Source of the DNA: a virus
Direction: 5' to 3' (one strand)
DNA length: 64,000 nucleotides
IMG/VR virus record: IMGVR_UViG_3300045970_000455
Coordinates: 11,866 to 75,865 of that record
The notes beneath the pieces are model-generated. The model saw nothing but the letters and a program-made list of their open reading frames with translations. It searched no databases and was not told the DNA's origin. Shown here one piece after another: positions 2,557 to 36,816 of the stretch. Numbering within the stretch: position 1 is the stretch's first letter; every line of letters starts with the position of its first letter. Position numbers and translations under genes: made by a program.

Positions 2557-2787
2557 TTAAAGGTGTTTTATGACATACACTAATGCGTCTTCACTGTTTA
2601 TTATAGCAGTTTCTTTAGAATATACACGATATTCATCTATATATTTAATCGCAGGTACAGGAACAACATGTATCATTTTATTATTAAGTTTTATTACCTT
2701 GCATATTTTGATGGTGTTGTGACGTGCTGCTACCACATACATACCTACACGAACTTGCACACCTAATATATCAAAATGTTCAGTCAT
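2557..2787 (-). CDS. Small SH3/KOW-like hypothetical protein
   Basis: DILGxxVRVGMYVV pattern; ATG 2787 overlaps the upstream stop. Confidence 0.6.
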   Translation of the reverse strand: MTEHFDILGVQVRVGMYVVAARHNTIKICKVIKLNNKMIHVVPVPAIKYIDEYRVYSKETAIINSEDALVYVIKHL

Positions 2788-2962
2788 TTTCTTTGTGCCA
2801 GCGTTCATCGTCATATTGCCTGTTTAACTCTTTTAATATTTCGGAGTCGATTACTTCCCTTATATACCGAGCCATCTGTAGTGCCATGTCTCGTTCCATG
2901 CGTTCTACTTTTGTATATTTTAGTATATCTATGACCTTATCTTTTAGCTGATCATCTGTCAT
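2780..2962 (-). CDS. Small protein resembling a helix of gp23-type major capsid protein
   Basis: Fills the operon gap with overlaps at both ends; contains MERDMALQMARYIREVIDSEILKELN. Confidence 0.55.
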   Translation of the reverse strand: MTDDQLKDKVIDILKYTKVERMERDMALQMARYIREVIDSEILKELNRQYDDERWHKEND

Positions 2963-3251
2963 AATCAACAACACGGATCAGTTTATCGCCCATCCAGTGA
3001 GAGCAAGATTCGTCGGCATCATGTTCAAAATCCTTAAGCATCTTCGCGAATTTTTTCTTTGAGATCTTTCTACCATCAATGATAGTTTCTCCTAAGAATT
3101 TTTGCGATACTTCCTCGAATGCATCTGCATCGTTACCTGAATCAATCATTGTCACTTCATCATATGCATGTTCAAGCGCATCGGCTTCAATAACATAACG
3201 TCGACGAAAGGTAGAAATAGTGTCTACCATGTATAGTTTCTTTTTAGTCAT
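2952..3251 (-). CDS. Conserved phage hypothetical protein
   Basis: Likely start MTKKKLYMVDTISTFRRRYVIEA, with ATGA overlap. Confidence 0.65.
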   Translation of the reverse strand: MTKKKLYMVDTISTFRRRYVIEADALEHAYDEVTMIDSGNDADAFEEVSQKFLGETIIDGRKISKKKFAKMLKDFEHDADESCSHWMGDKLIRVVDYDR

Positions 3252-3664
3252 TTTATACCCTTTAATATATCTACCACTTTCTGTTCTTCTGCCCATACTG
3301 CTTCTTGTTTGATTCTTGCATTTATATACTCTTTAATCTGGTGCCTTGAGCTCCATATTTTCTCTTCATAGAATGCTAACCCGTTGCAAGGACAGTCTAT
3401 AACAATAGCAACATCTCCAACATCTTTAGCCATTACACAATCTACAGCATAATGTATAACTACACCATCTGGATATTTTTTCTGTTTTTCCAGTGCATCC
3501 TCAATATAGCAATCATATTCTTCCGCATCGTGATCGATAATCTCTGCGTCAGGACAATAATGCTCCCTACCACAGAAGCCGCATGTCATGTAATGTGACC
3601 CGCCGCCCGATAGTGCATCGAGAAACATGTGAGATGGTTTTGTGGGAGATGTATAGAAACTCAT
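3248..3664 (-). CDS. Cys-rich hypothetical protein, possibly Zn-binding
   Basis: CGFCGREHYC and DCPCN; ATGA overlaps. Confidence 0.65.
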   Translation of the reverse strand: MSFYTSPTKPSHMFLDALSGGGSHYMTCGFCGREHYCPDAEIIDHDAEEYDCYIEDALEKQKKYPDGVVIHYAVDCVMAKDVGDVAIVIDCPCNGLAFYEEKIWSSRHQIKEYINARIKQEAVWAEEQKVVDILKGIK

Positions 3665-3867
3665 CTTTTTCCTTTCTTATGCCGTATTCTTGTATTACCC
3701 TTTTTACCCGGGGAATCTGCGAACTCGGGACTACCACCGACCATAATAGAGTTTGCCAATATTAGTCCATTTAACAGGCCATGCATATATCCCTTTTCGT
3801 TTGAATCTCGCTGAATAGCTACAAGTTTTGACAATGTAGATAATCTATGCTGAAGATCATGTTGCAT
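3661..3867 (-). CDS. Hypothetical protein
   Basis: Operon-coupled; YMHGLLNGLILA motif. Confidence 0.6.
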   Translation of the reverse strand: MQHDLQHRLSTLSKLVAIQRDSNEKGYMHGLLNGLILANSIMVGGSPEFADSPGKKGNTRIRHKKGKR

Positions 3868-5428
3868 CGTCGGTATTATCTTCCTGAGCTAATGTATCAT
3901 TATCTTCCCCTGCCATTTCCTCCACTGTCGGAAATTCAGTTGTAGAGTTAGGATCGTCATCACCAAACAATGTGCTAAATGTTGTCTTTGTCTTCTTGTT
4001 GCCAAAGCTAACATAGTTAAGAAACTGTAAGTTATCCTCCAACATTTCATACGGATGTTCATTAGCAGGATCAAACAACTTTTCAATAAAATCATTAAAG
4101 TAGATAATAGAGTTGGGAACAAAGTCACTCTTATTTGCTTTCTTATCCCGCATCTTATACCAGTCTTCAAAGTTTACATCTTTTCTTGTGGCGTAGTCTA
4201 TATCTGCAAGCCTGTTTATTTCTTGTATAGCTTGTATGTGATTATATACATTGTGTGCCATAACAAGTGCGTAACTTGTTGTATCCCAACTTGTCTTACC
4301 TATCTTGTTATGCTTATTAGCATCATTAGGTCCCATAACGCACACATCGCTTGTGTATAAACGTTCCATAATAGGGCCTTGGAATGGCATCGCTAACTTC
4401 TGTTCTTTTAAACCTTTGTCATCAATACCGCTTCCCATAGCATACGTCAGCCGATCTGGATTAAAGTAGTTATAGTTGTAAGATAGTGCATATCCGCCTG
4501 CTGCAACAAAAGGTGATGCAGCGTCAAAGCTAATATTAATGTTAGGATTGTGATGTTTCTTTAACACACGTTCTATAGATGTTAAATAGCACGCCCAGTC
4601 TAATCTTCCAATACCCAAAAAGTGTATCCAGTCCTTGCCTTCTAATAGACCATCGTCGCGTAGGTTAAGCAATCTCTCTAAAGATGTTTTCATGTTTTGC
4701 ATATTAACACCGGCAAATGCCCATCCTTCGAATGTTCTATCTCTGGTATATCCCATTGCTTCAACTATATCAGGCTGGCTGAATACCTTTACAGAATCAT
4801 ACCATTCTTTAGAGTTTTTATTATCGCTTCCGGACAACACATTAAGAAACTTAGTCGCGCCGGGCACTCTATGCTTCATAAAATAGTGAAGATTATGTTC
4901 TGTAACATCTAAACAATCTGCAAAACTTGTCAGCCCTGTTTTCTCACTTAATGGAGGTAATGCTGCAAACGCAGGAATATCCAATGTCATAGACCAATCG
5001 GCTGTATGCTCTAAGAATCTAAGAATTTCTTCTCTTAACTTATCACCGCCCGGTCCTTTAACTGTTGTCCAGTCTAACTTGATAACACCTGTAGCAATCT
5101 GAAACCCACCAGAGTCGCCAATGAGTATAGTATTTTCTCTATCACGCTTATGGATCATAGGTTCTCTATCATCACATTTATTTAACTTACGTTCTGCGTG
5201 ACCTGCGCTATACAGTCCATACCCGTATGTATAGTAACTTTTTTCTGCGTCGAAAAAGTTAAGTCCTTGTATACCAAATTCAAACTTTTCAGGAACACGT
5301 TCCTTAGGAATAAAAGTTGGATCAAGCAAATCCTTTCCAAGATGTGTTGTATAGAATCCGGAAATCGCAGGTAGGTATTTAGCCCAGCGACCTTCTTTAT
5401 GTCGCTCTGTAAAGTTTACTATATTCAT
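3857..5428 (-). CDS. tRNA-guanine transglycosylase-fold enzyme, probably DpdA-like DNA 7-deazaguanine transglycosylase
   Basis: GDSGGFQ, MTLD, HFLG, SFDAAS and late HN motifs of the TGT fold; no CxCxxC Zn site; directly downstream of clamp and DNA polymerase. Confidence 0.75.
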   Translation of the reverse strand: MNIVNFTERHKEGRWAKYLPAISGFYTTHLGKDLLDPTFIPKERVPEKFEFGIQGLNFFDAEKSYYTYGYGLYSAGHAERKLNKCDDREPMIHKRDRENTILIGDSGGFQIATGVIKLDWTTVKGPGGDKLREEILRFLEHTADWSMTLDIPAFAALPPLSEKTGLTSFADCLDVTEHNLHYFMKHRVPGATKFLNVLSGSDNKNSKEWYDSVKVFSQPDIVEAMGYTRDRTFEGWAFAGVNMQNMKTSLERLLNLRDDGLLEGKDWIHFLGIGRLDWACYLTSIERVLKKHHNPNINISFDAASPFVAAGGYALSYNYNYFNPDRLTYAMGSGIDDKGLKEQKLAMPFQGPIMERLYTSDVCVMGPNDANKHNKIGKTSWDTTSYALVMAHNVYNHIQAIQEINRLADIDYATRKDVNFEDWYKMRDKKANKSDFVPNSIIYFNDFIEKLFDPANEHPYEMLEDNLQFLNYVSFGNKKTKTTFSTLFGDDDPNSTTEFPTVEEMAGEDNDTLAQEDNTDDAT

Positions 5429-5439
5429 TTAATACCTTA

Positions 5440-6177
5440 TTAGGATTTTCCAGCAGGGAGAATAAAACTGTATTTCCCAATACCGGAATCGATGTCGATT
5501 TTTAATGCGCCCATATCAGAAAAACTCATTGTAGCAGAAGCTGCACTATCTGTTAGTTTCAGGATGCTAATAACTTGCGTCAGTGGATATGTCCATTGAT
5601 GTTTCAATGAACCAGTTACATTTGTCTCAAATGGAACACTTGTTCTATCTGTTGGTCCTGTGCCAATACTGAATTTAAGTGTGCCCTTATCAACAATAAC
5701 AATAAACCGTTTTTCAACTCCACCAACAACACCACAGTTATCGCTAAGTAACGCGATAGATTTCTTCGACGGTGTTATAACAATATCCCATGTTGCACCC
5801 TTAAATGGTGGAACCTTAACTTGTTCGTTAATCATCGTTTCCGACATAAATCTATAGTTAGATACAAAGCCTTCTTTATTATCAAACACAACTTCAACAG
5901 GTACCGTTACTCCGTTACGAACTTCTGTTGCAATGCTAACAGAAGATCCTTCGTGCATACCAATGAATCCTTTTAGGATAGCAAGCCGCGATAGGCCAAT
6001 AGTGCTGTCAATACCTGCGATTGGTTGATTCATGCTGCCGTATATGATAACAGTGTTATCTACGTCTTTTGTTTCTAACTTGGCATCAGATGCCGTACCT
6101 ATTACCTTCACTGTCTCGATAAATCCGAGAGAACCGGTATGTTTAATGATATCTTTAAACTGATCAATGCTTGACAT
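5440..6177 (-). CDS. Putative DNA polymerase sliding clamp (gp45/PCNA-like)
   Basis: 245 aa, alternating beta/alpha pattern, ends KYSFILPA, adjacent to PolB; clamp loader also in window. Confidence 0.7.
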   Translation of the reverse strand: MSSIDQFKDIIKHTGSLGFIETVKVIGTASDAKLETKDVDNTVIIYGSMNQPIAGIDSTIGLSRLAILKGFIGMHEGSSVSIATEVRNGVTVPVEVVFDNKEGFVSNYRFMSETMINEQVKVPPFKGATWDIVITPSKKSIALLSDNCGVVGGVEKRFIVIVDKGTLKFSIGTGPTDRTSVPFETNVTGSLKHQWTYPLTQVISILKLTDSAASATMSFSDMGALKIDIDSGIGKYSFILPAGKS

Positions 6178-6216
6178 TCTTATTCCTTTATTTTTAAAAT
6201 TGCTAACCTATCACAT

Positions 6217-6245
6217 AGTATACGACATTTTTTGCAAAATGTCAA
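6217..6245 (-). promoter_or_regulatory. Sigma70-type promoter for the clamp/TGT/GT operon
   Basis: TTGACA-17-TATACT on the minus strand; overlapped by inverted repeat GACATTTT-N4-AAAATGTC (6224-6243). Confidence 0.85.
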
Positions 6246-6250
6246 ACGTT

Positions 6251-9202
6251 TCAGATGCCTGTGAAGTCAAATAACGTAGTCAAATGCGCGTGTTGCTTTT
6301 GTGTCTTTGTAAGATCCCATTTAAGGCATCCTACCAAGTTTTCTACCTTTTTATCGACAATACCCTCTTCCATTCCTTCTGAATCAAATGGTAGAGATGT
6401 GAACCATTCTGGCAAATGATTTTCATCTACAGGATAGGCAATAGATGTCATTCTATTATCTACAGTATCTTTCAGTTTGCACACAACAATCTTTTGACCG
6501 TCCACAATCCTCATTGCATGTTGGTCCATGTTTATTTCTTTTAATCTGTTCCATGCAAGACTCGCTGTAACATGACCCGGTACATGAAGATTGCCGGATT
6601 TCACACCTTTTAGTTTCTTAAGTGCTGCATCCTCTAATACTTCTTTGTAATGCGTTAGTCTATTAACTGCGCGTGGTGTACCTTGTTGCCAGGGTTTCAT
6701 ATCTTCGAACTTTTCTTTGAACTTCCTAACTTTGTCAAGCACATATGTTTCGCCCTTGTCTGTCAATGTATCCATTAATATTTCTGATAAGAATTCCTGC
6801 ACATACTTTGGCGTATCTGCTCGTTTTAAGTCAAGCCCCATAGCCTTAACTTTCCCGGGCTTATTTCCAACGTCAAGTCTTATACCATCCTTTTCATACA
6901 TCAACACAGCATATCGTTTCTTAACAATATATAATCCGCTTTCTGCTACCACTTCGCGTGAGCTTGCTATAACGCCCGTTGATCTCTTAATAGGTACATT
7001 TAACAATCCTAATAAGAACTCCGGGAATGTTGCAGATACCATCTTAGCAAGATTATTATATAACTCCACTACGCTTTCTTTTGTCCATACAACTGTGCCC
7101 TGCTTAATCTCATCCTTTAATATAGGATATGCTGAAAAATAAGTAGAGTCAGTATCACCATAAACAATAGAATCTCCATAATGATCATATATACCTGTTA
7201 TTACCTCGTTGGTTTTAGCAGCCATATGCTTTGTAATGGTTCTACCTGTAAGAGTGGTAGATTGTCCAAGACGTTGATCAAAGAATCTACTGCCAGCGTT
7301 TAATAACGCGCCGTATGCTGAGTTCAAGTTAATCTTTTTAACAAGCTGCCTCTTATCCCAAAAACCAACTACACGTTTCAATGATGGTTGGTCTCTGCTT
7401 ATTGCCTTTCCATCCTTCACTGTTAAGCTGTGTTGATTCATATACTGGATTACACGCTTCTTATGTCCTTCCGATATTAGTTCTTGCAATTTCTTCGGTT
7501 TATAAGACTCGGTCTCTATGTAGGGATTAGCCTTAATCTCTATGTCACTAATATCGCCTAAATCAAACAGATTTACAGGTACTTTAACGCCTTCTATCTT
7601 AGGGTTGTCTTCTAAAGACTGATAGTTAGTCATTATGCCTTGTAATACCTTACGCTCGTTATACCATCTTGTAAGCAGTGATGGAATAACCCCGTTTATG
7701 TCTGTTCTAAAGATTGTACCGTTGGCGCTTATACACCAAGTATTTTGATTACTGAAAATAAGCTCTCTTAACTCTGCACCAGTGATTTCGAATGAATCAC
7801 CGTTTTCCATATCCAATATTAGTTTGTTACCAATATCGCCGGAATAGAAATCTTCCATCTCTAACACATTAAATCTATCGTTCCACCACGATGCAAAGGT
7901 ATATTTGTTTCCTTTGCTTTCATGTGCAGCAATAGCTTCGTTTGTTCTATCAAGCCTGATCTGCCCGACTATTGTTTCGGGACTCATGTTGAGTGTTCTA
8001 ATAACCGATGGATACAAAGACTTCATGTCGGTTGATCCTAACCACTTATGAAGTCCTCTCTTTGGTGTTGCTACCCAACCACCCGCTGCTCTAACTTCTT
8101 TCTCGTTAGCACTGTGCTTCTTATCAGGGCATACCATATTGTTATGGTGTGCTTCCATCAACACATTTTGATCAGTTACAGCAACCGCACCCATTGTAGT
8201 TTGTATTAAAACACAACTTTGGTGAGCGATAGAGTTTGCTAAATCAATAAACTGTAGTTTCTTATCGAGCCTATCTAATAGACGTGTATCTTGTATGTTA
8301 TATTCTAAAAACTTTTTAAAGTCGTCATTATACAACTCGTCTAATGTGCCTTCATATTGTAGTTTTGTCTCACCCAGCTCTACGTCTGCAATAGCGTTAA
8401 GTGCGTAACTATGTCGTTCTTCGTAGTTATACTTCTTGTATAGTTGCATATAGTCGATTGATATTCTACCAATCAGGTCATATGTTTTTGCTTCTTGTCC
8501 GCCACGGTCAAATGTGCGTTCCTTTGGCATTTGTTCCCATAGGCACAATCTACGCGCTTCATTCTTACCAAGCACTTTCTTAATGCGATTTACCGTGTAT
8601 GGAATATCATATGCTTCGCTGTTCCAGCCGCTTAACACATCTGCGTCTTCGATAATATCTAAAAACGCCCTAAGCATGTCTGCCTCTTCTTTAAAGAGAG
8701 TGACATTGCCCACTTCTTCTGCTATTGCTTGCGCTTCTTCCCATGTTAGTGTTTCAGGTGGCACAGCAAAGCACACAATTTCGTCTATCCATTGCAGATG
8801 AACAGAAATTGCTGTTATGTAGTTGTTTGCCTCTGATGCTTCCGACCAGCCGAGTTCTTTATCAAAGCTGGTTTCAATATCAAAGAATGCTACATTAAGT
8901 GACGGTACTTCACCCGCCGCATAGTTATGCTCTAAACATCTAAAAACAGGATCAACATCACTTTCCCATTTTTTAGAGTTGCTTGATAGTGTTTTTAATA
9001 TTTTCTGTTTTTCTATAAACGTATTCGGTGTTACTTTCTTTACCGAATCGCCATATATGGATTTAAACTGACCTCTTGGATCTGTTAAGTAAAAATGATA
9101 ATCCGGCTGAAATTCTTTATATATCCGCTTACCGTTAACTCTTTCTACTATCTTTATTGTTTCGGAGTCGCCACCGCGCTTAAAAAATGAATCAATATAC
9201 AA
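6251..9202 (-). CDS. Family B DNA polymerase with 3'-5' exonuclease
   Basis: DIET, GWNSEAYD, YNIQD, DMKSLYPS, KINLNSAYG, YGDTDS. Probable TTG start at 9202 after the upstream stop, with GGTAGGGG RBS. Confidence 0.97.
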   Translation of the reverse strand: MYIDSFFKRGGDSETIKIVERVNGKRIYKEFQPDYHFYLTDPRGQFKSIYGDSVKKVTPNTFIEKQKILKTLSSNSKKWESDVDPVFRCLEHNYAAGEVPSLNVAFFDIETSFDKELGWSEASEANNYITAISVHLQWIDEIVCFAVPPETLTWEEAQAIAEEVGNVTLFKEEADMLRAFLDIIEDADVLSGWNSEAYDIPYTVNRIKKVLGKNEARRLCLWEQMPKERTFDRGGQEAKTYDLIGRISIDYMQLYKKYNYEERHSYALNAIADVELGETKLQYEGTLDELYNDDFKKFLEYNIQDTRLLDRLDKKLQFIDLANSIAHQSCVLIQTTMGAVAVTDQNVLMEAHHNNMVCPDKKHSANEKEVRAAGGWVATPKRGLHKWLGSTDMKSLYPSVIRTLNMSPETIVGQIRLDRTNEAIAAHESKGNKYTFASWWNDRFNVLEMEDFYSGDIGNKLILDMENGDSFEITGAELRELIFSNQNTWCISANGTIFRTDINGVIPSLLTRWYNERKVLQGIMTNYQSLEDNPKIEGVKVPVNLFDLGDISDIEIKANPYIETESYKPKKLQELISEGHKKRVIQYMNQHSLTVKDGKAISRDQPSLKRVVGFWDKRQLVKKINLNSAYGALLNAGSRFFDQRLGQSTTLTGRTITKHMAAKTNEVITGIYDHYGDSIVYGDTDSTYFSAYPILKDEIKQGTVVWTKESVVELYNNLAKMVSATFPEFLLGLLNVPIKRSTGVIASSREVVAESGLYIVKKRYAVLMYEKDGIRLDVGNKPGKVKAMGLDLKRADTPKYVQEFLSEILMDTLTDKGETYVLDKVRKFKEKFEDMKPWQQGTPRAVNRLTHYKEVLEDAALKKLKGVKSGNLHVPGHVTASLAWNRLKEINMDQHAMRIVDGQKIVVCKLKDTVDNRMTSIAYPVDENHLPEWFTSLPFDSEGMEEGIVDKKVENLVGCLKWDLTKTQKQHAHLTTLFDFTGI

Positions 9203-9203
9203 A

Positions 9204-9461
9204 TCAGATGCCCCTACCAATCTGCCCTAATAGATCTTCGACTTCTTCAAAATCTGCTCTTACGTTATTTAGATTTGCCTTATGTGCAATCTTTATCACT
9301 TTATTGAGTTGAGCAGGTTTCACTTCCAACTCTTCGGCTATAGCCTTAACTGTTTCGCTAAGACCTACTTTTAGGTCTTCACATTCCTGTAATACCTGCA
9401 CTCCGTCTGTTACCAGTTGTTTCAATCGTGACAAATTTGCGTCTGATAGTTTCGATGACAT
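9204..9461 (-). CDS. dsDNA-binding protein (T4 DsbA / GapR-like)
   Basis: LSETVKAIAEELEVKPAQLNKVIKIAHK coiled-coil pattern; AGGAGAG RBS before ATG 9461. Confidence 0.65.
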   Translation of the reverse strand: MSSKLSDANLSRLKQLVTDGVQVLQECEDLKVGLSETVKAIAEELEVKPAQLNKVIKIAHKANLNNVRADFEEVEDLLGQIGRGI

Positions 9462-9504
9462 AACTCTCCTTGATTTGTTGTGTGCTATACTTAGCAATAA
9501 AGTA

Positions 9505-9533
9505 AGTATAACTGTAATATTTTAGAAAGTCAA
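9505..9533 (-). promoter_or_regulatory. Sigma70-type promoter for dsbA-like gene and PolB
   Basis: TTGACT-17-TATACT. Confidence 0.8.
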
Positions 9534-9535
9534 TA

Positions 9536-9865
9536 TTATACAGCGAAACTCTGTCCGCAACCACATGTTGAGCTGCTGTTTGGGTTTTGTATTACAAACT
9601 GAGAACTCATTAGTTCTTCTTTATAGCTTACAGTAGATCCTACCAAATATTGATAGCTCATGGCATCCACAATAATAGTGACTCCGTCTTTTACTATTTC
9701 TGTATCATCCTCGGCTACTTCTTTATCAAAAGTAAAACCATAAGAAAATCCCTGGCATCCACCACCTTGCACAAATATCCTAAGTTTCTGTTCGGGGTCG
9801 CCGTCATCTATTATGAGGTCACGTATTTTGTTTATTGCCGAATCTGCGAATACGATTGGTTCCAT
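9536..9865 (-). CDS. erpA: A-type Fe-S carrier ErpA/IscA
   Basis: [42 protein letters not shown]. Confidence 0.93.
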
Positions 9866-10239
9866 TAACGTGTTTTCCTATAATCTGCTATGGCTGCTTT
9901 AACAGCATCCTCTGCCAATATGCTACAATGTATTTTTACGGGTGGTAGGGCTAATTCTTCCGCTATTTCTGAATTTTTAATAGTAGCTGCTTGACCTACA
10001 GTCTTGCCTTTAACCCATTCTGTCACTAAACTGGATGAAGCAATCGCTGAACCACACCCATAGGCCTTGAACTTTGCATCAGTAATGATTTCATCTTCTA
10101 CCTTTATTTGTAGGCACAAAACATCTCCGCATGCCGGGCTCCCTACCATTCCTGTTCCTACAGTAGGATCTCCCTTTTCAAACTTTCCAACATTACGAGG
10201 ATTATTATAGTGATCCAACACTTTTTCGGAATATGCCAT
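9865..10239 (-). CDS. iscU: Fe-S scaffold IscU
   Basis: [42 protein letters not shown]. Confidence 0.97.
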
Positions 10240-10820
10240 TATAGCCTCCCGTAAGCATTACCTGTCAGTGGTTCGTTTGTTCCGTGATACGCTTTATCGT
10301 CATATCCGTGTATAGGAGATAATATACCTTCTCTTTCAGTCTTTGATTGTGTGTTATCTGTGAATCGATACATTTGGTCTGGCATAACACGCTTAAACCA
10401 TTCTGCTACCATAGGGCGCACATCACGGTTAGGTTCCGTGTCTTCCAATATACGCAACTCATCCGAGAATGCATCATCCTTGATAATATCTTGCAAGAAT
10501 ACTTCTGCAACACACGCCGGAATAGGTCTTGACATAATCTCTTCCACTAAGTCAAAATCTTCGTTTGATATAGGTAGCTTATGAATGGCTTCCATAACCT
10601 TTATTTCATTTATACTTTCTATTGTAGCTTTTAACTCTGTATAATCTTTACGCAGTTCTTTTTGTAAAAGCCCTTTTTTCGCTTTCGGAGTAGATGGGTC
10701 GCCAATCATATCTACATATTTGTCCATGCGTTGTTGTAAGGCGTTTAGGTTGGCTATCTTCTTTTTAGATAGACTTTTATCGTTCATCCCCTTCGGTAAT
10801 AATAGTTCTAAGATTTTCAT
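10239..10820 (-). CDS. Probable virion head-associated protein
   Basis: MKILELL start and charged composition like other MK(I/L)x(E/D) proteins here; in a late operon. Confidence 0.5.
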   Translation of the reverse strand: MKILELLLPKGMNDKSLSKKKIANLNALQQRMDKYVDMIGDPSTPKAKKGLLQKELRKDYTELKATIESINEIKVMEAIHKLPISNEDFDLVEEIMSRPIPACVAEVFLQDIIKDDAFSDELRILEDTEPNRDVRPMVAEWFKRVMPDQMYRFTDNTQSKTEREGILSPIHGYDDKAYHGTNEPLTGNAYGRL

Positions 10821-11278: not shown

Positions 11279-11291
11279 TATTTACTCCGAA

Positions 11292-12284: not shown

Positions 12285-12287
12285 GTT

Positions 12288-12653: not shown

Positions 12654-12672
12654 ATTTAAAATCCTCTTATTG

Positions 12673-12680
12673 TATTTATC
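12673..12680 (-). promoter_or_regulatory. T4-late-like promoter GATAAATA
   Basis: About 20 nt upstream of ATG 12653; recurrent motif (see findings). Confidence 0.7.
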
Positions 12681-12698
12681 ATATTAGACACCACAGCC

Positions 12699-12722: not shown

Positions 12723-12739
12723 TATCTTTTTAGTTTTGT

Positions 12740-28938: not shown

Positions 28939-29184
28939 TCATTTATCTTTAGATAATGCCTGTATCTGTGCTTCCATTACGATAATGGTATCGGTCATTA
29001 GTTTCAGCGTTGCTGCAACCTTTGTTCTATATGCTGTATCGTCGGCTTCATGCACATATCTTGCATCAGAGAACATAATACCCGCTACAGTTAATACAAC
29101 GGTGCCGGCTAGGCCTGCTAATGTTTTCAACGGATTATCTTTTACTACCTGAACTGCCTTTGCTATATTTTCTGCTATACTCAT
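28939..29184 (-). CDS. Small single-TM protein
   Basis: Hydrophobic segment then coiled coil; ATGA overlap. Confidence 0.55.
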   Translation of the reverse strand: MSIAENIAKAVQVVKDNPLKTLAGLAGTVVLTVAGIMFSDARYVHEADDTAYRTKVAATLKLMTDTIIVMEAQIQALSKDK

Positions 29185-29429
29185 AGTTGTTTCGCCCATT
29201 TAATCTTGTTCCAAACTCTTTCGTGACACCAGTACACAAAGGGTTTAATAACCATCTCTGTAGCACCTATTGCTAAAGATATGGCAAACACTCCTGTTAC
29301 AAGATATGATATTATAACAGTAGTTAATGTACCACATACTCTATAACTGTATGCCTTAACTAGACTTCTTATCGGAGATTCTCCGTTGTTAAGCCCCCAA
29401 CTATTTATGAACTTTTGTATTAAACTCAT
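29181..29429 (-). CDS. DUF2061-like membrane protein
   Basis: RSLVKAYSYR...YWCHERVWNKIKW. Confidence 0.8.
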   Translation of the reverse strand: MSLIQKFINSWGLNNGESPIRSLVKAYSYRVCGTLTTVIISYLVTGVFAISLAIGATEMVIKPFVYWCHERVWNKIKWAKQL

Positions 29430-30028
29430 TCTTCTAGCCCGTATTCTGCAGATATAATACCGTATATTTCTTTCCACGGAGTAACGTGACTAACTGTAGG
29501 AAATGCAGAAGATGTATAATGAGAGTTATACGGATGATTTATAAGAATTGCTTTCATCCCTAGTTCATGGCCTGCTTCGGCATTATGTATATGATCTTCT
29601 ATCCAAAAGTATCCCGTATTTTGCCATTTCTCTAATGCACTCTTCTTATAAGATCCTATTTCTAAACAAATAATATCATCAAATATATCCCCAAATATGC
29701 GCGAAGCATTTACTAATCTATGTTCCTTAGCTTTAGGATTACTACTTATGCTTGTCACTACAGTAAATCTGAAACCTTTGCTTGCTAGTTTTTCTAGGTA
29801 TTCTACAGAATCTGCAAATGGCATAATATCTTCTATATGCCGGCTGTCGTTAAATTCTTTAACATACGCCATTGCTTGACTCACTGGTACGCCATGTCTC
29901 GACGAAATATTATAGTGATGATCTGTATCTACAAGTTGCGGATAACCTTTACTCTCCATAAAGATATTAAACCCACTGTTCCAGTCGGCTATGGTCCCGT
30001 CGTAGTCAAGTATTATTTTCTTTTCCAT
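29426..30028 (-). CDS. HAD-superfamily 5'(3')-nucleotidase-like phosphatase
   Basis: ILDYDGTIADW, VVTS, K, WIEDH. Confidence 0.85.
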   Translation of the reverse strand: MEKKIILDYDGTIADWNSGFNIFMESKGYPQLVDTDHHYNISSRHGVPVSQAMAYVKEFNDSRHIEDIMPFADSVEYLEKLASKGFRFTVVTSISSNPKAKEHRLVNASRIFGDIFDDIICLEIGSYKKSALEKWQNTGYFWIEDHIHNAEAGHELGMKAILINHPYNSHYTSSAFPTVSHVTPWKEIYGIISAEYGLEE

Positions 30029-30029
30029 T

Positions 30030-30374
30030 TTAATCAAATATCGTTGGTAATCGTACATTACCGAACTGGTCTGTAATAGTATCTGGTGCTTTTTCAATCT
30101 GAAAAGATTTGTATGCACTATCTAATTCAGCCATCTGTTTTTCATATTTGCGAGTAATAAAGGACTCAAACTCATTATAGTTGCCAAGTCCGGCACGCTC
30201 ACCTATTATCATCTTTCTGTTAATATAGTCGCCTATAGCACTAGACATACTATAATGCTTGGGCCGCAGGTTATTAACAAACTCTAGTTTTTCATTGGTC
30301 TCCCACACAGTGTTAGACCCCTTCTTTAAACTGTGTTTATGAGATAACACAACAAATAGTTTTTCTTTACCCAT
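30030..30374 (-). CDS. Hypothetical protein
   Basis: Operon-coupled ORF. Confidence 0.65.
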   Translation of the reverse strand: MGKEKLFVVLSHKHSLKKGSNTVWETNEKLEFVNNLRPKHYSMSSAIGDYINRKMIIGERAGLGNYNEFESFITRKYEKQMAELDSAYKSFQIEKAPDTITDQFGNVRLPTIFD

Positions 30375-30375
30375 A

Positions 30376-31311
30376 TTATTCCTTCGCTATAAGTTCTAGT
30401 TCTACAAATGTTGCACTAAGGTTGATTTCTAAATCAGCACACATTGCATGTTTTACCAATCCATCTCTAATAGCAATGATTGCCGAATTTTCCTTATCTG
30501 CATTACCGTCTGCCCATATATCAAGATTTTGATACATAAACTTATACATCTCCTCATACTCATCTTGCAGCAACTGAGCACATATAAGTCTTCTTGCTTC
30601 TACATATTTCTTTGCTCTAAACAAAGCAATCATATCTATCTTATAATCTGCAACTGTTTCTGCATCCTCGTTTGGAGAAAGTAGTTTATTGTTGAATGTA
30701 TTTGCTTGAATCATACTTATACCTCTGCGAAGGTCTGGGTATGTTTTCTTTACAATAGTATCTAATGCATCTATATCGATTTCAACAGATTCTTTATCTA
30801 GTATATCTACAAGACGCAATAAGAACTCATCATTATCAAGTTTTTCAATATGCATACGACCTGTTTCACACCTAGACTTGATAGCAGGCATAATCTTATG
30901 CGGATAGTTGCATGTTAAAAGGAATCTTACAGAGTTAGAGTACTTTTCCATTGTCCCTCTTAATACACCTTGTGCAGGTGGTGATAGACCATCGGCCTCA
31001 TCAAGGAAGATGTATCTCATATCTCCGTAACCCATTGTCTCAGAGAAGTTGGTTACTTTTTCTCTGATAAAATCTACACCATTATCCCTAGATGCATTAA
31101 CTTCCATAACATCATACGGATCAATCTTCAATTCATTTAATAGAATTTTTACAAGTGTTGATTTTCCTGTGCCAGGCGCGCCAGATAATAACATATGCGG
31201 GAGGGCACCTTGTGATATCCACTGTTCGATTTGTTTTTTCTGCTTACCATCTTTGAAAACATAACCAGCAAGACCACTCGGCCTATACTTTTCTGACCAT
31301 AACTTTTTCAT
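30376..31311 (-). CDS. Clamp loader AAA+ subunit (gp44/RFC-like)
   Basis: LWSEKYRP, GAPGTGKS, EVNASRD, LDEAD, TCNY, SRC. Confidence 0.95.
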   Translation of the reverse strand: MKKLWSEKYRPSGLAGYVFKDGKQKKQIEQWISQGALPHMLLSGAPGTGKSTLVKILLNELKIDPYDVMEVNASRDNGVDFIREKVTNFSETMGYGDMRYIFLDEADGLSPPAQGVLRGTMEKYSNSVRFLLTCNYPHKIMPAIKSRCETGRMHIEKLDNDEFLLRLVDILDKESVEIDIDALDTIVKKTYPDLRRGISMIQANTFNNKLLSPNEDAETVADYKIDMIALFRAKKYVEARRLICAQLLQDEYEEMYKFMYQNLDIWADGNADKENSAIIAIRDGLVKHAMCADLEINLSATFVELELIAKE

Positions 31312-31322
31312 AATGACTCTTA

Positions 31323-31670
31323 TTAAAATGCGTGTGTAGTTGTATATTCCGAAAATGTAACAGCAGACTCCGGATCTTCATCCGAAACAAGCATAACAGA
31401 TTGTGGCCATTCTACACCCCACACCTGTGTATGATCACCCGAATCTTCTTTTATTTTTAACATTCGTGTCCATCTACCATTTTCGATTAGTATCCACTGT
31501 CCTACAGTGATTTCATCTATGCCTTCACCTACAGCATATACCTTGCCCCAGCGAGGACGAATGCCCTCGCTCTTACCGTTATCATCTGGAATAATAATTC
31601 CGTTGATAATGCGCGATCCTCTTTCTAAATCAGTTACTAGAACTTTTCCCGGCATTGCTTTGATTTTCAT
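31323..31670 (-). CDS. groES: GroES-like co-chaperonin
   Basis: KVLV...GIIIP...WGKVYAVGEG...ITVGQWIL. Confidence 0.85.
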   Translation of the reverse strand: MKIKAMPGKVLVTDLERGSRIINGIIIPDDNGKSEGIRPRWGKVYAVGEGIDEITVGQWILIENGRWTRMLKIKEDSGDHTQVWGVEWPQSVMLVSDEDPESAVTFSEYTTTHAF

Positions 31671-31818
31671 CTATGTCCCTTTCTTTTACATTGGCGATTA
31701 ATAATGCATCTTCGATTTCTTTTATTGCATCTATATTATGCACTATTTTTAGTTTTTCTACAACATTTCGGTCTATATTGTAGGTTATATTATTAATCTT
31801 ACCCGAAATGGTATCCAT
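31630..31818 (-). CDS. Small protein resembling a segment of gp23-type major capsid protein
   Basis: Starts just after the upstream stop; YNIDRNVVEKLKIVHNIDAIKEIEDAL. Confidence 0.5.
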   Translation of the reverse strand: MDTISGKINNITYNIDRNVVEKLKIVHNIDAIKEIEDALLIANVKERDIDENQSNAGKSSSN

Positions 31819-31819
31819 A

Positions 31820-32122
31820 TTAAACAACAATGTCGCCGTTGGGTAGTTCTTTTTCTTTTACCTTCTTAACAACGGTAGGTTTAACTGTTTCTACTACATC
31901 GGGGATAGGACCTTTTAGTCCTGTTGCCACTACGTCACTCTTTACAGTAGAATTGTGTTCTGTAACAACTTGGTTGATTGTTTTTGTTATTACCCCGCCG
32001 CGGGTAAGTTGATCACCTTTAGCATTAACTCTGTGATTACCTACAGCAGGTGTTTTCTCATTTTCTCGGCGCATTGAATCCATGTCAATAGTTAATCCGC
32101 GATACGTTGTATGTGATGCCAT
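31820..32122 (-). CDS. Conserved jumbo-phage hypothetical protein
   Basis: YRG..IDM......NE..PAVGN.RVNAKGDQL motif. Confidence 0.7.
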   Translation of the reverse strand: MASHTTYRGLTIDMDSMRRENEKTPAVGNHRVNAKGDQLTRGGVITKTINQVVTEHNSTVKSDVVATGLKGPIPDVVETVKPTVVKKVKEKELPNGDIVV

Positions 32123-32133
32123 TTTATTTCCTC

Positions 32134-32649
32134 TTATTTTAAAAAATCTCTTATATCAAGTTTATAACGAATACCGTCGACTCTGTGAGTTCCTATTAGA
32201 TATAATATATAAGAACTTGTCGAACTTCCTCTTCCTACGCCCCAAACAAACTTATTCTTCCTCATATAATCTATAAGGAAAATAAACAAACGTAAAAGCA
32301 TAATCAAATCACGTTCTTCAAATAATTCGTATTCTTCCTTAACCCTGTTGATTTGTTCTTGTGTAGTGCATTTATCTATTAGCCACTTAAACACGTCTAT
32401 ATTCTGAAACTCAATAGGTAATAACCATTCACTGGCCCGAATTGTATGAAACTCGTCAAACGATAATGTTTCTTCGGGTGTATCTAAGAATACAGTGTCG
32501 TGCTTTAATAATTCACTTTTATATTCATTGTATAATATAATGTCATTATCTGTAATAACATTTAAGTGACTTATATTCTTACCTTGTAATATTAACTCTC
32601 TAAGATTATCACTTGACAGTATAGCCTGCCCGTATGAATCTATTTTCAT
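32134..32649 (-). CDS. Stand-alone fragment of DNA polymerase III alpha (DnaE palm N-part)
   Basis: RVKEEY..F, WGVGRGSS.SSYILYLIG.HRVD; ends before the PDIDxD catalytic motif. Confidence 0.8.
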   Translation of the reverse strand: MKIDSYGQAILSSDNLRELILQGKNISHLNVITDNDIILYNEYKSELLKHDTVFLDTPEETLSFDEFHTIRASEWLLPIEFQNIDVFKWLIDKCTTQEQINRVKEEYELFEERDLIMLLRLFIFLIDYMRKNKFVWGVGRGSSTSSYILYLIGTHRVDGIRYKLDIRDFLK

Positions 32650-32650
32650 T

Positions 32651-33364
32651 TTAAACTTTTTTCGGTTTCCATCTTTCGACCTGCACAATTCTAGCAGGCT
32701 CCCTAGGGACAGTTGTGAATTTTTCAGATGCTTCTTTTACTGCTTTGTCGAATTCATCCATCGGATCCATAACATCTTTGAACAGCTCTTCATCGGTTAA
32801 TGTGGTATCCTCGGGTCTAACAAATTCAAAACAGAAACCATCGTTCCTTAACCACCAGGGTATCTCATCTCGTGATTTACCTTCAGTGTAATAGTCTGCT
32901 GTTTTATTTGGTAGGTTATATCCTGTTTCTGCAGGATCGAATGTATATTGAACGGACATGTCACTACCCTTTAATCTCATTTCTCCAATCAACATATTTG
33001 TTTCTGCCAATATAGATAGTTTAGAATGCAATAGTTGAATGATTACATCATCATATGGTTCGACAGGAGCATACATCATTATGTTTGACGATAGATTAGC
33101 AATATACAAATCATCCTCATTGCTTACATCTACCATTATAATATTAGGTAAGTTTGTGTCAAGCCAAAAATACAACTTCTGATAAGTCATTGTCGCTTCA
33201 TACTCACTTATGTCAGTTGATTTAGCTTTTTTGTCTATGGCAACAAGGTCAATAGACAAGTGCCAATCAACAGGAACCAATGCACTGTCTAATATTCTTA
33301 CTCCAGTAAAATCATACTCGAGTGTCATATGATTTCTAATACGGAGTTTTCCAGATGTCATCAT
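32651..33364 (-). CDS. Hypothetical protein, possibly degenerate T-fold
   Basis: Long ORF coupled to the DnaE fragment; fold guess from hydrophobic pattern only. Confidence 0.6.
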   Translation of the reverse strand: MMTSGKLRIRNHMTLEYDFTGVRILDSALVPVDWHLSIDLVAIDKKAKSTDISEYEATMTYQKLYFWLDTNLPNIIMVDVSNEDDLYIANLSSNIMMYAPVEPYDDVIIQLLHSKLSILAETNMLIGEMRLKGSDMSVQYTFDPAETGYNLPNKTADYYTEGKSRDEIPWWLRNDGFCFEFVRPEDTTLTDEELFKDVMDPMDEFDKAVKEASEKFTTVPREPARIVQVERWKPKKV

Positions 33365-33627
33365 AAAGTTTTACCTGTATTACCTTCCAGCTTACCTAAC
33401 TCAAGTGGTTGATTTGCTTTAGGGTTTTTCTTTTCTAGTTCTGCAGTTCTTATTTTTTCTAATCGCTGCACTCTCTCATCTTCGAGTGACTGAATGACTT
33501 CTTTTATACTCTGCACTGTGGGATTATGCCCCATCATTGTTTGGTGGTTCATATATGTATATGCTCGACCTAATCTCTCTAATATAACTTCGTCTGATAA
33601 CTTGCTAACGTCTAAGAATGGATGCAT
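33361..33627 (-). CDS. Hypothetical coiled-coil protein (late)
   Basis: MHPFLDVSKLSD; CATAAATA at 33650-33657. Confidence 0.65.
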   Translation of the reverse strand: MHPFLDVSKLSDEVILERLGRAYTYMNHQTMMGHNPTVQSIKEVIQSLEDERVQRLEKIRTAELEKKNPKANQPLELGKLEGNTGKTL

Positions 33628-33679
33628 ATAACCTCTTGTGATACTCTTATATTTATGCGTAAATATATTGTTAGTATAA

Positions 33680-34096
33680 CTATTCCGATACCTCTGTATA
33701 TTCCTGTATTGTGAATTTTACATTGGTAGGCCACATATATACATGCCGTGCTGTTTCTCCTACCGTTAACCTAAACTGTAATGCATCCATTTCTTCCTTA
33801 AACACCCAATATGATCTATAAATCATTTGTTCTGTGCTGAAATTAAGCGTATATTGCTGGGCGAATGGCGGGATAATCAGCGCAGGCCGAGACTCTTCCG
33901 GTATAGTTATATTTTCTATCTCCGGTGAACTATATCCCCATGTATTGGTTGTACATGTTTTAGCAATCTTTAATATTTTTCTAAATTCTATGATGTCTAT
34001 ATTGAATGACCCCGCAGGGGTGTTGTGATCCAACCTAACTACATACGGATTAGTTATAAACAACGGTACATTAATGTGAAATTTCTTTACAATCAT
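33680..34096 (-). CDS. Hypothetical, F-x4-DA-x2-F-x-L family
   Basis: WVFKEEMDALQFRL. Confidence 0.65.
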   Translation of the reverse strand: MIVKKFHINVPLFITNPYVVRLDHNTPAGSFNIDIIEFRKILKIAKTCTTNTWGYSSPEIENITIPEESRPALIIPPFAQQYTLNFSTEQMIYRSYWVFKEEMDALQFRLTVGETARHVYMWPTNVKFTIQEYTEVSE

Positions 34097-34335
34097 ACAT
34101 ATTCATGATTTAATCTATAAAAGTTCGTCACATCAGATTTTTCAGAGAAACGAATAACAACATACTGACCCATATCGAGTTCAGCGTACAATCCTTTTAT
34201 AGACTTGAAACTTTTCTGAATCTCATCTATTCTGCGATAAAATACAGCAGGGTGTAACTTAACGGAATTCCACCCAGCAGTATAGCTATCAACTGAAATC
34301 GGATCGCCTACGATACACTTTCCTTCTTGCTTCAT
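34093..34335 (-). CDS. Hypothetical, divergent member of same family
   Basis: IRFSEKSDVTNFYRL. Confidence 0.6.
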   Translation of the reverse strand: MKQEGKCIVGDPISVDSYTAGWNSVKLHPAVFYRRIDEIQKSFKSIKGLYAELDMGQYVVIRFSEKSDVTNFYRLNHEYV

Positions 34336-34584
34336 TTACTTCTCCAATGGTATAACTGAGTCTGCCGGTACGAGTTTCTTTAAATATTCCATCGATACAC
34401 CCCTGCGCGTCCCTTCCACAGACACCCTATACTCATTTCTGAAATGATTCCAAAAGTTTGGCGGATACTTTTTTAATGGTCGTAGAATACCCGATACCTT
34501 AAGAGTATAGAGTTTCTTTTCCTTTAAGTGCCAGAAATATCCTGAATATTTAGTTGCGACAAAATCACTTGGTAGAGTTACCAC
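34336..34584 (-). CDS. Hypothetical protein
   Basis: YSGYFW....KLY.LKVSG.LRPL; operon-coupled. Confidence 0.65.
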   Translation of the reverse strand: MVTLPSDFVATKYSGYFWHLKEKKLYTLKVSGILRPLKKYPPNFWNHFRNEYRVSVEGTRRGVSMEYLKKLVPADSVIPLEK

Positions 34585-34864
34585 ATCTATTCTCCATAAC
34601 AGTTGACCATTTATCTATAATAGACTGACCTAGTTCTTTCACGTCAGTCGGAATAGGATACTCCGTTAACGCGCTTATATGCTGTAACATCGATAATGTA
34701 TATTCTTTTCCCGATGTTGTCTTTATGGTAAATCGAAGATCACCTTTTAATCTATCAATGACAGCATCCTCGTCGGCGCGAGCGCTAAGATCGATGCTCT
34801 CTATAAATGGCAACCCTATAAGTGTGCCATTAGATATAACAAATGCCGGTGTGTAAGCTGCCAT
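34565..34864 (-). CDS. Hypothetical protein
   Basis: Operon-coupled ORF. Confidence 0.6.
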   Translation of the reverse strand: MAAYTPAFVISNGTLIGLPFIESIDLSARADEDAVIDRLKGDLRFTIKTTSGKEYTLSMLQHISALTEYPIPTDVKELGQSIIDKWSTVMENRCGNSTK

Positions 34865-35130
34865 TAAATCAGTGTAAGATACAGAGTGGATGTAGGATCA
34901 AACTCTTCCTTAAAAATATAGATCTTAGGATTCACAGTTTTACCTGTGTTCAGGGTCTTCAGTATTCTGCCTTGCATTGTCCAGCATTCACTGCCCTTAC
35001 CTACATTTTCATTTAACCAGTTAACAATCTTATAAAAGTGTTCACGATCCCGAATGGTTACTGAAAAGGAATGAAGTGCATTCTGTTCCTTAAAATTCTT
35101 CGGTTCTTCCTTTTTGATTTGTTTAGCCAT
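34864..35130 (-). CDS. Hypothetical, related small family
   Basis: WLNENVGKG...W; sigma70 promoter upstream. Confidence 0.65.
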   Translation of the reverse strand: MAKQIKKEEPKNFKEQNALHSFSVTIRDREHFYKIVNWLNENVGKGSECWTMQGRILKTLNTGKTVNPKIYIFKEEFDPTSTLYLTLI

Positions 35131-35156
35131 GTTTCGCTTTCTGTTATTAAGTGTTT

Positions 35157-35185
35157 ATTTTACTATATTTTTGTAATATTGTCAA
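35157..35185 (-). promoter_or_regulatory. Sigma70-type promoter
   Basis: TTGACA-17-TAAAAT. Confidence 0.75.
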
Positions 35186-35643
35186 CAAGGTGTTGATAAA
35201 TCTAACTCGATTAATTCTACCCCAGCCTCTATTGCATAATCTCGCACCTTATTAAACGAGTCACCCCATCGAACCAGTTGTGCTTCGGTAGGCATCGGTG
35301 CTACAAATCTAATGATGCCTGCCTGTAGCATATGAACAAAACATCGATCACAGGAAATAAATGGATATGTGTAAAGAGTTGTGTTATTCAAATCTTCTTT
35401 CGCAAATAATAATGCATTCATTTCGCAATGCACAATTCTACTATATTTTTCTGCCCTGTTATTATAGTTTTCTGCTAGATCAGGCATTGCCCCCGGAAAA
35501 CCGTTAAATCCAGTTGATATCATTCTCTTGCCAGAAGTAATAACTGCGCCGGTCTGTGTGCTAGGATCTTTAGACCATGTTGATATTAACTTTGCCATCT
35601 CCAGGAACCTTAGGTCCCATTTTAGTTGATCTTGTTGATTCAT
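35182..35643 (-). CDS. dCMP deaminase
   Basis: WSKDPSTQTGAVI, STGFNG, HCEMNAL, SCDRC. Confidence 0.92.
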   Translation of the reverse strand: MNQQDQLKWDLRFLEMAKLISTWSKDPSTQTGAVITSGKRMISTGFNGFPGAMPDLAENYNNRAEKYSRIVHCEMNALLFAKEDLNNTTLYTYPFISCDRCFVHMLQAGIIRFVAPMPTEAQLVRWGDSFNKVRDYAIEAGVELIELDLSTPC

Positions 35644-35957
35644 CTCGACAGTCTCTCCCTAACAAGGATATTGGCAAGTTCATCACCGAAGTTATCTTCG
35701 TTTGATATAATATACAATGCGGTAAGTCTTCTATCTAACAGTTGATCGTATTGCACCATTTGCACAATGTGACCACCACCTTTGGCATTGTATAATGTAA
35801 AATTCATACCAGACGAATCTTCTAGCCCAATCGTATTACTACCCAGATTAATGCCTGTGCTTGCCATTTTGCCTTTGTAGTTATCGCTTACAGCGACACA
35901 TTCTTCACGCATTGCCCAGCTAATAAATCTTCTACTTAATCTTCTAATCATGCTCAT
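35640..35957 (-). CDS. Conserved phage hypothetical protein
   Basis: MNFTLYNAKGG...YD...DR....LYII. Confidence 0.65.
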   Translation of the reverse strand: MSMIRRLSRRFISWAMREECVAVSDNYKGKMASTGINLGSNTIGLEDSSGMNFTLYNAKGGGHIVQMVQYDQLLDRRLTALYIISNEDNFGDELANILVRERLSR

Positions 35958-36195
35958 TCTTATAGTTCCATTTTAATTTAAATGCTACTGCATCCATCTC
36001 TTGTCTAAATGAATATTGTAATGTATTCATGTCCTTAATAAAACAATACCAGTCTTCTGTAAACTTACCCACGCAACTGTTACACCAGTCATCCACAGGG
36101 TGATTATACCTGCCCGGAGTCATCGACATATCGTTACTCGCTGGCCTCCCTGTCATAACGCTATAAGGCCATATTCTTTTATTTAATACTCTCAT
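35944..36195 (-). CDS. Hypothetical, F-x4-DA-x2-F-x-L-x-W family
   Basis: WC...VG....W, YSFRQEMDAVAFKLKW. Confidence 0.7.
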   Translation of the reverse strand: MRVLNKRIWPYSVMTGRPASNDMSMTPGRYNHPVDDWCNSCVGKFTEDWYCFIKDMNTLQYSFRQEMDAVAFKLKWNYKNEHD

Positions 36196-36196
36196 T

Positions 36197-36418
36197 TTAC
36201 GACCAAACTAACTTAAATGCAACGGCATCCTCTGGATTTCTAAAATAGAAGAATGTATTACCAAATGCACCATCCATACACCAAATCATATTATCGGCAA
36301 TGTCATCATTATAATGCCATCCACCTTTACCGATACGTTCCTCACACCAATGCTGCATCTCTGTATGGAGATGATACTTTTCTTTTCCGAATGTTATTTT
36401 ATGCGTTAGCTTGGCCAT
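36197..36418 (-). CDS. Hypothetical, F-x4-DA-x2-F-x-L-x-W family
   Basis: WCEERIG.G.W, FYFRNPEDAVAFKLVW. Confidence 0.7.
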   Translation of the reverse strand: MAKLTHKITFGKEKYHLHTEMQHWCEERIGKGGWHYNDDIADNMIWCMDGAFGNTFFYFRNPEDAVAFKLVWS

Positions 36419-36816
36419 TTTAGTTCAAATAGTATAGCAGATTCTTCTTTATTAAAATCTATAGCTAGTTTATTACCATCGACAGAATGTATTCTCCAAT
36501 CCCAGTCGGTTCCTTGCACTCCTACATTTTCTTCTAACCAAGGCCTATATTTTATGTTTGGCTCGTCGTCAAGCGCCTTCATAAATGGTCTGATAGAAGT
36601 ATGTAATATGTTCATAGTGGTAACCATTCTAGGATAATTCATGTATAATATATATTTGGCATTGTCCCTAAACTTAAACTTGAATATATTATAATATGGA
36701 TGAATGCCCGATGATAAGTTAGATAAAGGTTGTATACTAATGATTTTATCTGCTATCAATGTAGGGTTAACTGTCCTAATCACAGGCATTATTATCTTCT
36801 TAAAATCAAATGTCAC
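36406..36816 (-). CDS. Fusion of a capsid-protein Gol-like peptide to the small family domain
   Basis: IIMPVIRTVNPTLIADKIISIQPL at the N-terminus; WLEENVG.QG.DW and IDFNKEESAILFELKW at the C-terminus; GTGA overlap. Confidence 0.7.
   Translation of the reverse strand: MTFDFKKIIMPVIRTVNPTLIADKIISIQPLSNLSSGIHPYYNIFKFKFRDNAKYILYMNYPRMVTTMNILHTSIRPFMKALDDEPNIKYRPWLEENVGVQGTDWDWRIHSVDGNKLAIDFNKEESAILFELKWPS

Follow-up and report, generated by a model that had tools for sequence, protein, structure and literature searches.

Do phages copy pieces of their own capsid protein onto small free proteins, and what would such copies be used for? This question is raised by a 64-kb window (the whole stretch of DNA analysed here) of the 75.9-kb IMG/VR contig IMGVR_UViG_3300045970_000455, a record estimated to be about 20% complete. 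An initial annotation of the window had proposed that three dispersed small open reading frames (ORFs), here called ORF1, ORF2 and ORF3, each present a different piece of the phage major capsid protein (MCP) and together form a capsid-decoy system. All three ORFs are present on the minus strand with the peptides that had been quoted, and the T4 gp23 strings given for the comparison are exact, at gp23 residues 94, 270 and 287. The best explanation of the locus, to which we assign a probability of about 0.5 (a figure that includes the well-supported anatomy), is that only ORF3 is capsid-derived and that it encodes a mini-protein of two modules, a capsid-peptide tag and a small carrier domain, which would act as a mimic or decoy.

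The question matters because the molecular patterns that bacterial immunity reads are mainly conserved virion proteins, as in the Lit/Gol system, CapRel and several STAND/Avs sensors. Of phage counter-measures we found two kinds described, namely escape mutations and, against the tail-tube sensor DSR2, the inhibitor DSAD1 (PMC11087589). If the reading given above is true, phages would have a further kind of counter-measure, not described before: a free small protein that carries a selected and recurrent homologous copy of the best-conserved capsid peptide.

ORF3 joins a capsid-protein segment to a small domain

ORF3 (36406..36816, minus strand) encodes a protein of 136 amino acids (aa). It starts with GTG, preceded by GGAG 9 nt upstream, and overlaps the stop of the upstream homing-endonuclease-like ORF. 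Five homologues with 52-90% identity were found (P0001-P0005), and the loci L003-L012 were compared as well. The tag comprises residues 5-53 (36658..36804, minus strand) and is homologous to residues 58-106 of the MCP of phage GAP32, with a pairwise BLASTP E-value of 3e-10. In Smith-Waterman alignments against the GAP32 MCP, ORF3 reached a score of 93, compared to 28.9 +/- 4.3 for the shuffled sequences (z=15); none of the 500 shuffles, the number used for all such comparisons, reached this score. An hhalign comparison of the ORF3 family with the capsid alignment gave a probability of 96% and an E-value of 2.9e-9, and positions 4-34 of the Pfam family Gp23 (PF07068) match ORF3 with an E-value of 6.7e-4 and 19.6 bits (18.8 bits in the scan of its own genome). 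In an unfiltered hidden Markov model (HMM) search that covered all 424 ORFs of the window, ORF3 was found with an E-value of 1e-4. The resemblance of ORF3 to the capsid protein is thus beyond chance, as the initial annotation had suspected, and these alignments show that the tag is homologous to it. When ORF3 was searched with tblastn against 50,697 phage genomes, matches were obtained in 100 records; 25 of the 30 listed carry an annotation, and all of these lie in capsid genes of giant T4-type phages.

The core of the tag (residues 9-33) aligns without gaps to residues 95-119 of T4 gp23, with 9/25 identities (M, R, P, LIA, I, QP). In T4 this segment is the end of the N-arm together with the first ordered strand, i.e., the 'Gol' peptide, and it is the best-conserved segment of the capsid protein. 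In the predicted structure of ORF3 the tag forms a helix (residues 5-21) and a strand (residues 24-30) with a predicted local distance difference test score (pLDDT) of about 60, and the linker is likewise modelled with low confidence, as would be expected of a flexible appendage. The carrier domain is predicted as beta-alpha-beta-beta-alpha with a pLDDT of 70-88.

Residues 54-136 show no capsid similarity and contain a separate domain that is common to untagged paralogues. This small C-terminal alpha/beta domain spans residues 73-136 (36409..36600, minus strand) and carries the conserved motif EPN..YRPWLEENVG.QG.DW.W...LFELKW. With the MCPs of the gp23 family (PF07068; T4 gp23/gp24 and GAP32 gp250, HK97 fold) ORF3 has only about 45 residues in common, namely the end of the N-arm and the first strand, whereas the P-domain, the A-domain, the spine helix and the rest of the fold are missing and the protein has 136 aa instead of 390-520 aa. 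Its Gp23 score of 19.6 bits lies below the 24.4-bit cut-off of the family and comes from positions 4-34 of a 376-position profile. ORF3 cannot be a capsid subunit. Owing to such partial PF07068 hits, proteins of the ORF3 type risk being annotated as capsid fragments.

ORF1 and ORF2 resemble gp23 at chance level

ORF1 (2780..2974, minus strand) is a small helical ORF of 64 aa, or 60 aa from the ATG at 2962, within a run of DNA-modification genes. ORF2 (31630..31830, minus strand; 66 aa, or 62 aa from the ATG at 31818) overlaps the start of the GroES/gp31-like gene by 41 nt. For both, the likeness to the capsid protein was not supported. Compared to T4 gp23 in Smith-Waterman alignments, ORF1 gave z=1.9 with 30/500 shuffles reaching its score, and ORF2 gave z=2.5 with 13/500 shuffles reaching it, the best alignment of ORF2 being different from the claimed one. 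The hhalign probabilities were 2% for ORF1 and 5% for ORF2, the latter requiring a gap of 16 residues. In the HMM search of the window, ORF1 (E 2.3) and ORF2 (E 2.7) ranked fourth and sixth amid unrelated ORFs, as is expected when the best chance matches to an amphipathic helix are selected by eye. No capsid match of either ORF was found in Pfam or PHROG, nor in the 50,697 phage genomes even at E<=10, and the search of viral contigs yielded no relatives of the two. Upon clustering, ORF1 remained a singleton and ORF2 was grouped only with copies of at least 97% identity. Moreover, in the nearest relative, a syntenic contig of 134 kb (G001), the two genes that flank ORF2 abut and ORF2 itself is missing. 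By these comparisons ORF1 and ORF2 are unrelated small ORFs and not capsid-derived.

A dispersed three-piece decoy system, in which each of the three ORFs would present another gp23 epitope, is consequently very improbable. It is in line with this model that ORF1 and ORF2, in their best hhalign and HMM alignments, are indeed placed on the spine-helix region of gp23 that had been named, and that several capsid motifs on one protein occur elsewhere, e.g., in P0155 (see below). However, both ORFs resemble gp23 at chance level and have no capsid-related homologues, one is a singleton, and the other is absent from G001. The comparison with the gp23 family thus came out in favour of ORF3 and against the other two: the idea of an exapted capsid segment holds for ORF3, which is under selection and lies outside any head module, but for ORF1 and ORF2 it came down to generic helical similarity.

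The tagged gene is part of a conserved block and its tag is under purifying selection

ORF3 lies in a non-structural context, a nucleotide-metabolism block with genes for MazG and dCMP deaminase. The conserved block consists of a 387-aa protein (p387), MazG, ORF3, small paralogues, p105 (105 aa), dCMP deaminase and an 88-aa protein, and is syntenic in at least 12 independent contigs. The MazG-like pyrophosphohydrolase and the 387-aa protein (together 37766..39383, minus strand) are the conserved upstream neighbours of ORF3 and define a syntenic block of early type. The 387-aa protein (38220-39383, minus strand) belongs to no Pfam family; in at least 12 contigs it occurs, at 30-38% identity, in strict synteny with MazG and the slot of ORF3.

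Between MazG and ORF3 the window contains a DUF7487 homing-endonuclease-like ORF of 299 aa (36813..37712, minus strand), which overlaps the ORF3 start. It shares 62% identity with the ORFs at the same site in L004/L005 and is lacking in the 12 remaining syntenic loci with MazG; it is an insertion and stands outside the conserved module. In these 12 loci MazG is directly followed by an ORF3-type gene, and in 7 of them this gene carries the tag.

For the 26-codon core of the tag the ratio of nonsynonymous to synonymous substitution rates (dN/dS) was 0.10 for L010/L011, 0.11 for L003/L010, and 0.26-0.27 for the window compared to L003 and L004. For L003/L006 no non-synonymous change was found at a synonymous difference (pS) of 0.15. 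The tag is under purifying selection. Both the survey of relatives and the dN/dS values, which the initial annotation had named as checks, point to conservation of ORF3.

These data bear on the explanation that the tag is a neutral relic, i.e., a scrap of a capsid gene carried along by recombination or by the adjacent endonuclease, or that ORF3 as a whole is what is left of a disrupted capsid gene. The endonuclease-like ORF indeed abuts the tag in the window and L004/L005. However, 12 syntenic loci lack the endonuclease and 7 of these are tagged, the tag is under purifying selection and recurs on many carriers, and the remainder of ORF3 is a conserved independent domain that is not capsid-like. 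We consider a neutral relic to be hardly credible. Two specific versions, a capsid gene broken by the endonuclease and a tag that hitch-hikes with it, were ruled out by the endonuclease-free syntenic loci and the non-capsid C-terminal part. In addition, a stretch 'GTPKIDKKAIS' upstream of some tags was considered as part of the tag and rejected; its apparent conservation is most simply attributed to the 3' end of MazG, which is conserved and which it overlaps in a different frame.

The carrier domain belongs to a family of small domains

The carrier is a member of an 'FKLxW' small alpha/beta domain family, which by profile and motif is a family of its own with at least five copies in the window. 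The HMM of the domain matches ORF3 with an E-value of 3.6e-22, and the pattern W..E..G..G..W.W ... A..F.L.W is found in it. Across 37 sequences the residues P86, Y90, R91, W93, L94, E95, G99, Q101, W105, W107 and W134 are invariant. Directly downstream of ORF3 lie two untagged paralogues on the minus strand, one of 73 aa (36197..36418; E 1e-12) and one of 83 aa (35944..36195; E 4e-14). A more distant member of 88 aa (34864..35130, minus strand) is syntenic in relatives, and a further one (39386..39616, minus strand) opens the operon, with a match to a sigma70-like promoter shortly upstream of it (39667-39639).

The small domain occurs in hundreds of small proteins of phage contigs from fresh water and soil, but has no family in Pfam or PHROG. 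Searches with the model of ORF3 gave no clear fold: Foldseek found no match in the PDB at E<=0.001, the BFVD search returned only uncharacterised small phage proteins, and the VIA-wide search reached a best Z of 3.8 with generic RRM/ferredoxin-like rows. In the ESM Atlas only unnamed viral clusters were found, one of which has PF07068 on 13% of its members.

Capsid tags recur on many small proteins

The tag profile was searched against 1.84 billion cluster representatives, which resulted in 1,736 proteins at E<=1e-3. Among the best 150 of these, which were sorted, 28 have the tag followed by an FKLxW-type small domain (of several sub-families), 3 have the reverse order and 17 join the tag to another C-terminal part, while the remainder comprise domains without the tag as well as genuine capsid proteins and fragments of these. 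Thus at least 31 other protein clusters join the tag to FKLxW-type small domains. The family consensus of the tag is much closer to the capsid proteins than the copy in ORF3; tagged P0048, for example, shares 72% identity with the GAP32 MCP over 43 residues.

Also at the same position in the genome the combination of modules varies. In L016 the slot after MazG is occupied by the tag joined to another subtype of the small domain, and the next gene is of the ORF3 type but has no tag. In some syntenic lineages (L013-L015, L018) the tag was lost and the gene kept, in some of them with a zinc ribbon in its place. Because the tag is found on differing carriers and is lost or swapped in lineages, it is by these comparisons a constant, portable and selected module on a varying carrier. 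With respect to the zinc ribbons, in these variants of the ORF3 family a Cys4 type lies between tag and carrier (P0014, P0016, P0017 and P0026) or, in L013:611-1039, stands instead of the tag.

In a tree of the 39-residue segment, which is short and has no support values, the tags interleave with the lineages of capsid proteins, which suggests repeated capture or co-evolution. When P0048, P0149 and ORF3 were searched against the GenBank phage collection no tagged mini-protein was found, and every listed match with an annotation lies in a capsid gene. The sole near-full-length match in the searches with P0048 and P0149 was to Stenotrophomonas phage RAS14, within an ORF of 462 aa that is probably the capsid gene of this phage. 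According to the searches with ORF3, P0048 and P0149, the class appears to be present only in metagenomes.

A second capsid peptide was found in the relative G001. There, a small-domain protein of 88 aa (L076:1309-1575, plus strand) has a C-terminal tail of 21 residues with 52% identity to residues 318-338 of the GAP32 MCP (GYKG...YYCPYIP; pairwise E 4e-8), corresponding to Pfam Gp23 positions 303-326. The tail is kept in the homologues P0008 and P0009 (72% and 55% identity). No counterpart of it was found on the present contig, which represents about one fifth of the genome. The notion that different capsid pieces are displayed on different mini-proteins thus holds within the clade, by way of G001, but not by way of ORF1 and ORF2. 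As aligned so far, the copied peptides are the N-arm/Gol segment and, in this relative, the strand-turn-strand before the P-loop.

Two larger proteins, P0155 (381 aa) and P0057 (474 aa), look like re-ordered capsid mosaics with, in this order, the spine helix, the Gol segment, a propeptide-like helix and FYSPYVPLM...TRYG. They may be 'mini-capsid' paralogues or permuted forms.

Possible functions of the tagged protein

What the copied segment does in T4 has been studied in the context of phage exclusion. Gol is a region of 29 residues and the most conserved part of gp23; it binds domains II/III of EF-Tu, inhibits the EF-Tu GTPase and allows the Lit protease of e14 to cut EF-Tu (PMC3014915). 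EF-Tu, with Lit acting on the complex, is the only experimentally known reader of the isolated peptide, and therefore we prefer a decoy for an EF-Tu-centred or another sensor. Like the Gol peptide used in experiments on Gol/Lit/EF-Tu exclusion (e14 prophage), the ORF3 tag, homologous to gp23 ~94-122, is presented outside of the folded capsid protein. However, it is encoded by a separate gene in a non-structural block and fused to a carrier, the likeness is one of sequence, and the tag of the window is diverged, with QPL and an insertion after the motif.

ORF3 thus displays a selected copy of the most conserved segment of the capsid protein on a small carrier, as a flexible N-terminal tag of ~45 residues. 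We propose that the gene is transcribed early, as the consensus match to a sigma70-like promoter would suggest. The tag would mimic the unassembled or nascent N-arm of the capsid protein and occupy the partner that normally reads this segment. ORF3 would in this way act pre-emptively, competing for or diverting a host factor that senses the capsid, whether this is centred on EF-Tu or not. That a host factor reading the nascent capsid segment is the target is a tentative proposal, somewhat short of an even chance.

A comparable situation is that of DSAD1. Like ORF3 it is small and phage-encoded, and either protein could take up the site with which a sensor reads a conserved virion protein, for DSAD1 the tail tube read by DSR2 (PMC11087589). 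The tag of ORF3 differs in that it is a homologous copy of a capsid segment and has no known sensor. DSAD1, in contrast, is not known to be a homologue of the tail-tube trigger that it counters. Literature searches and a recent review of phage counter-measures gave no description of a capsid-fragment decoy, and the class of tagged mini-proteins appears to be undescribed in print.

Several points weigh against the decoy. The tag of the window is the most diverged of the family, with QPL for QPM, an insertion after it and a long branch in the tree. In T4 the Gol peptide activates Lit and does not block it, and a plain copy would therefore do harm in a host that has Lit. The capsid gene of the phage itself is not on the contig, so that self-mimicry here means a comparison with the capsids of relatives, and the early timing is read from consensus promoter matches. 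Furthermore, detection favours the best-conserved capsid segments, and little can therefore be made of the observation that it is the most conserved parts which occur as tags. A co-fold of the tag alignment with E. coli EF-Tu, run without controls, gave a score of 0.00, which says nothing about binding either way.

Foremost among the rivals is a capsid-associated role. In this case the tag docks the small domain on the prohead, at the scaffold-facing or the inter-capsomer site of the N-arm, and the protein is a head-loaded cargo, a decoration protein or a modulator of assembly or size. In the T4 prohead gp23 is disordered up to L106, and this part probably points to the scaffolding core; once the head has expanded the segment is an N-arm with inter-capsomer contacts, and A94V and G97S, two mutations that affect head length, are located where it begins (PMC9546572). 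The peptide copied in the tail of G001 ends just before the P-loop cluster of length mutations, T457A, R460C and G461S (PMC9546572). The tagged proteins P0143 and P0152 also carry a propeptide-like helix, and tags appear to track capsid lineages. However, the ORF3 gene lies in the nucleotide-metabolism block and not in a head module, and in L013-L015 and L018 the tag was lost while the gene was retained. The internal proteins of T4 (IPI-III, Alt) share with ORF3 a short modular N-terminal tag on a variable small cargo. Their capsid-targeting sequence, which does not stem from the capsid protein, terminates with an L/I-x-E protease site. Such a leader is absent from ORF3, whose first 20 residues contain no Glu and hence no L/I-x-E site. 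We regard a capsid-associated role as rather unlikely; if true, ORF3 would represent a new kind of head-assembly accessory.

Another explanation is a control of translation, with the tag recruiting EF-Tu-GDP like T4 Gol and a ferredoxin/RRM-like carrier contacting the ribosome or RNA. The binding of Gol to EF-Tu domains II/III and its inhibition of the GTPase fit this explanation (PMC3014915), and among known structures the carrier weakly resembles RRM-like domains and domains of translation factors, in every case with Z < 4. These fold matches are at noise level, and the second, unrelated capsid peptide of the relative is left unexplained. In addition, cells contain far more EF-Tu than a small accessory protein could titrate, and altogether translation control is improbable.

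Returning to the decoy, the findings would fit a more general principle. T4-type giant phages of fresh water and soil may repeatedly copy short, highly conserved peptides of their own MCP onto an expanded family of small domains, and these portable mimics, expressed from non-structural and probably early operons, would pre-occupy host factors or immune sensors of the nascent capsid protein as a self-mimicry form of counter-sensing. In this generality the idea is doubtful. If true, it would offer a handle on why the Gol segment is so conserved and on what its binding to EF-Tu does for the phage.

Genome and setting of the window

The clamp-loader encoded in the window shares 52% identity with that of Pseudomonas phage PA5oct and its relatives, and the source, which is uncultured, is therefore placed with the giant phages of the T4 superfamily as a distant member of their GAP32/PA5oct type. 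A megablast search with positions 30000-38000 of the window against the 50,697 phage genomes gave no match. The sequencing runs that contain the window DNA are exclusively DNA runs from ponds, wetlands and other fresh water, and no RNA run is among those listed. In the Gp23-profile scan of the record no full capsid gene was found on the contig, ORF3 being the sole match.

The T4 late-promoter motif TATAAATA is under-represented on both strands of the window (5 found vs 10 expected). Since the motif is not enriched, it does not settle the timing of expression, and this group of phages probably uses a different late-promoter signal.

The GroES/gp31-like co-chaperonin next to ORF2 (31323-31670, minus strand) matches Pfam Cpn10 and the PHROG category head morphogenesis, and shares 82% identity with its counterpart in G001. 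Finally, an ORF of 184 aa at 32134-32688 (minus strand) matches only the N-terminal part of the NTPase domain of DNA polymerase III alpha (PF07733, positions 16-94 of 260) and may be a split or fragmentary polymerase gene.

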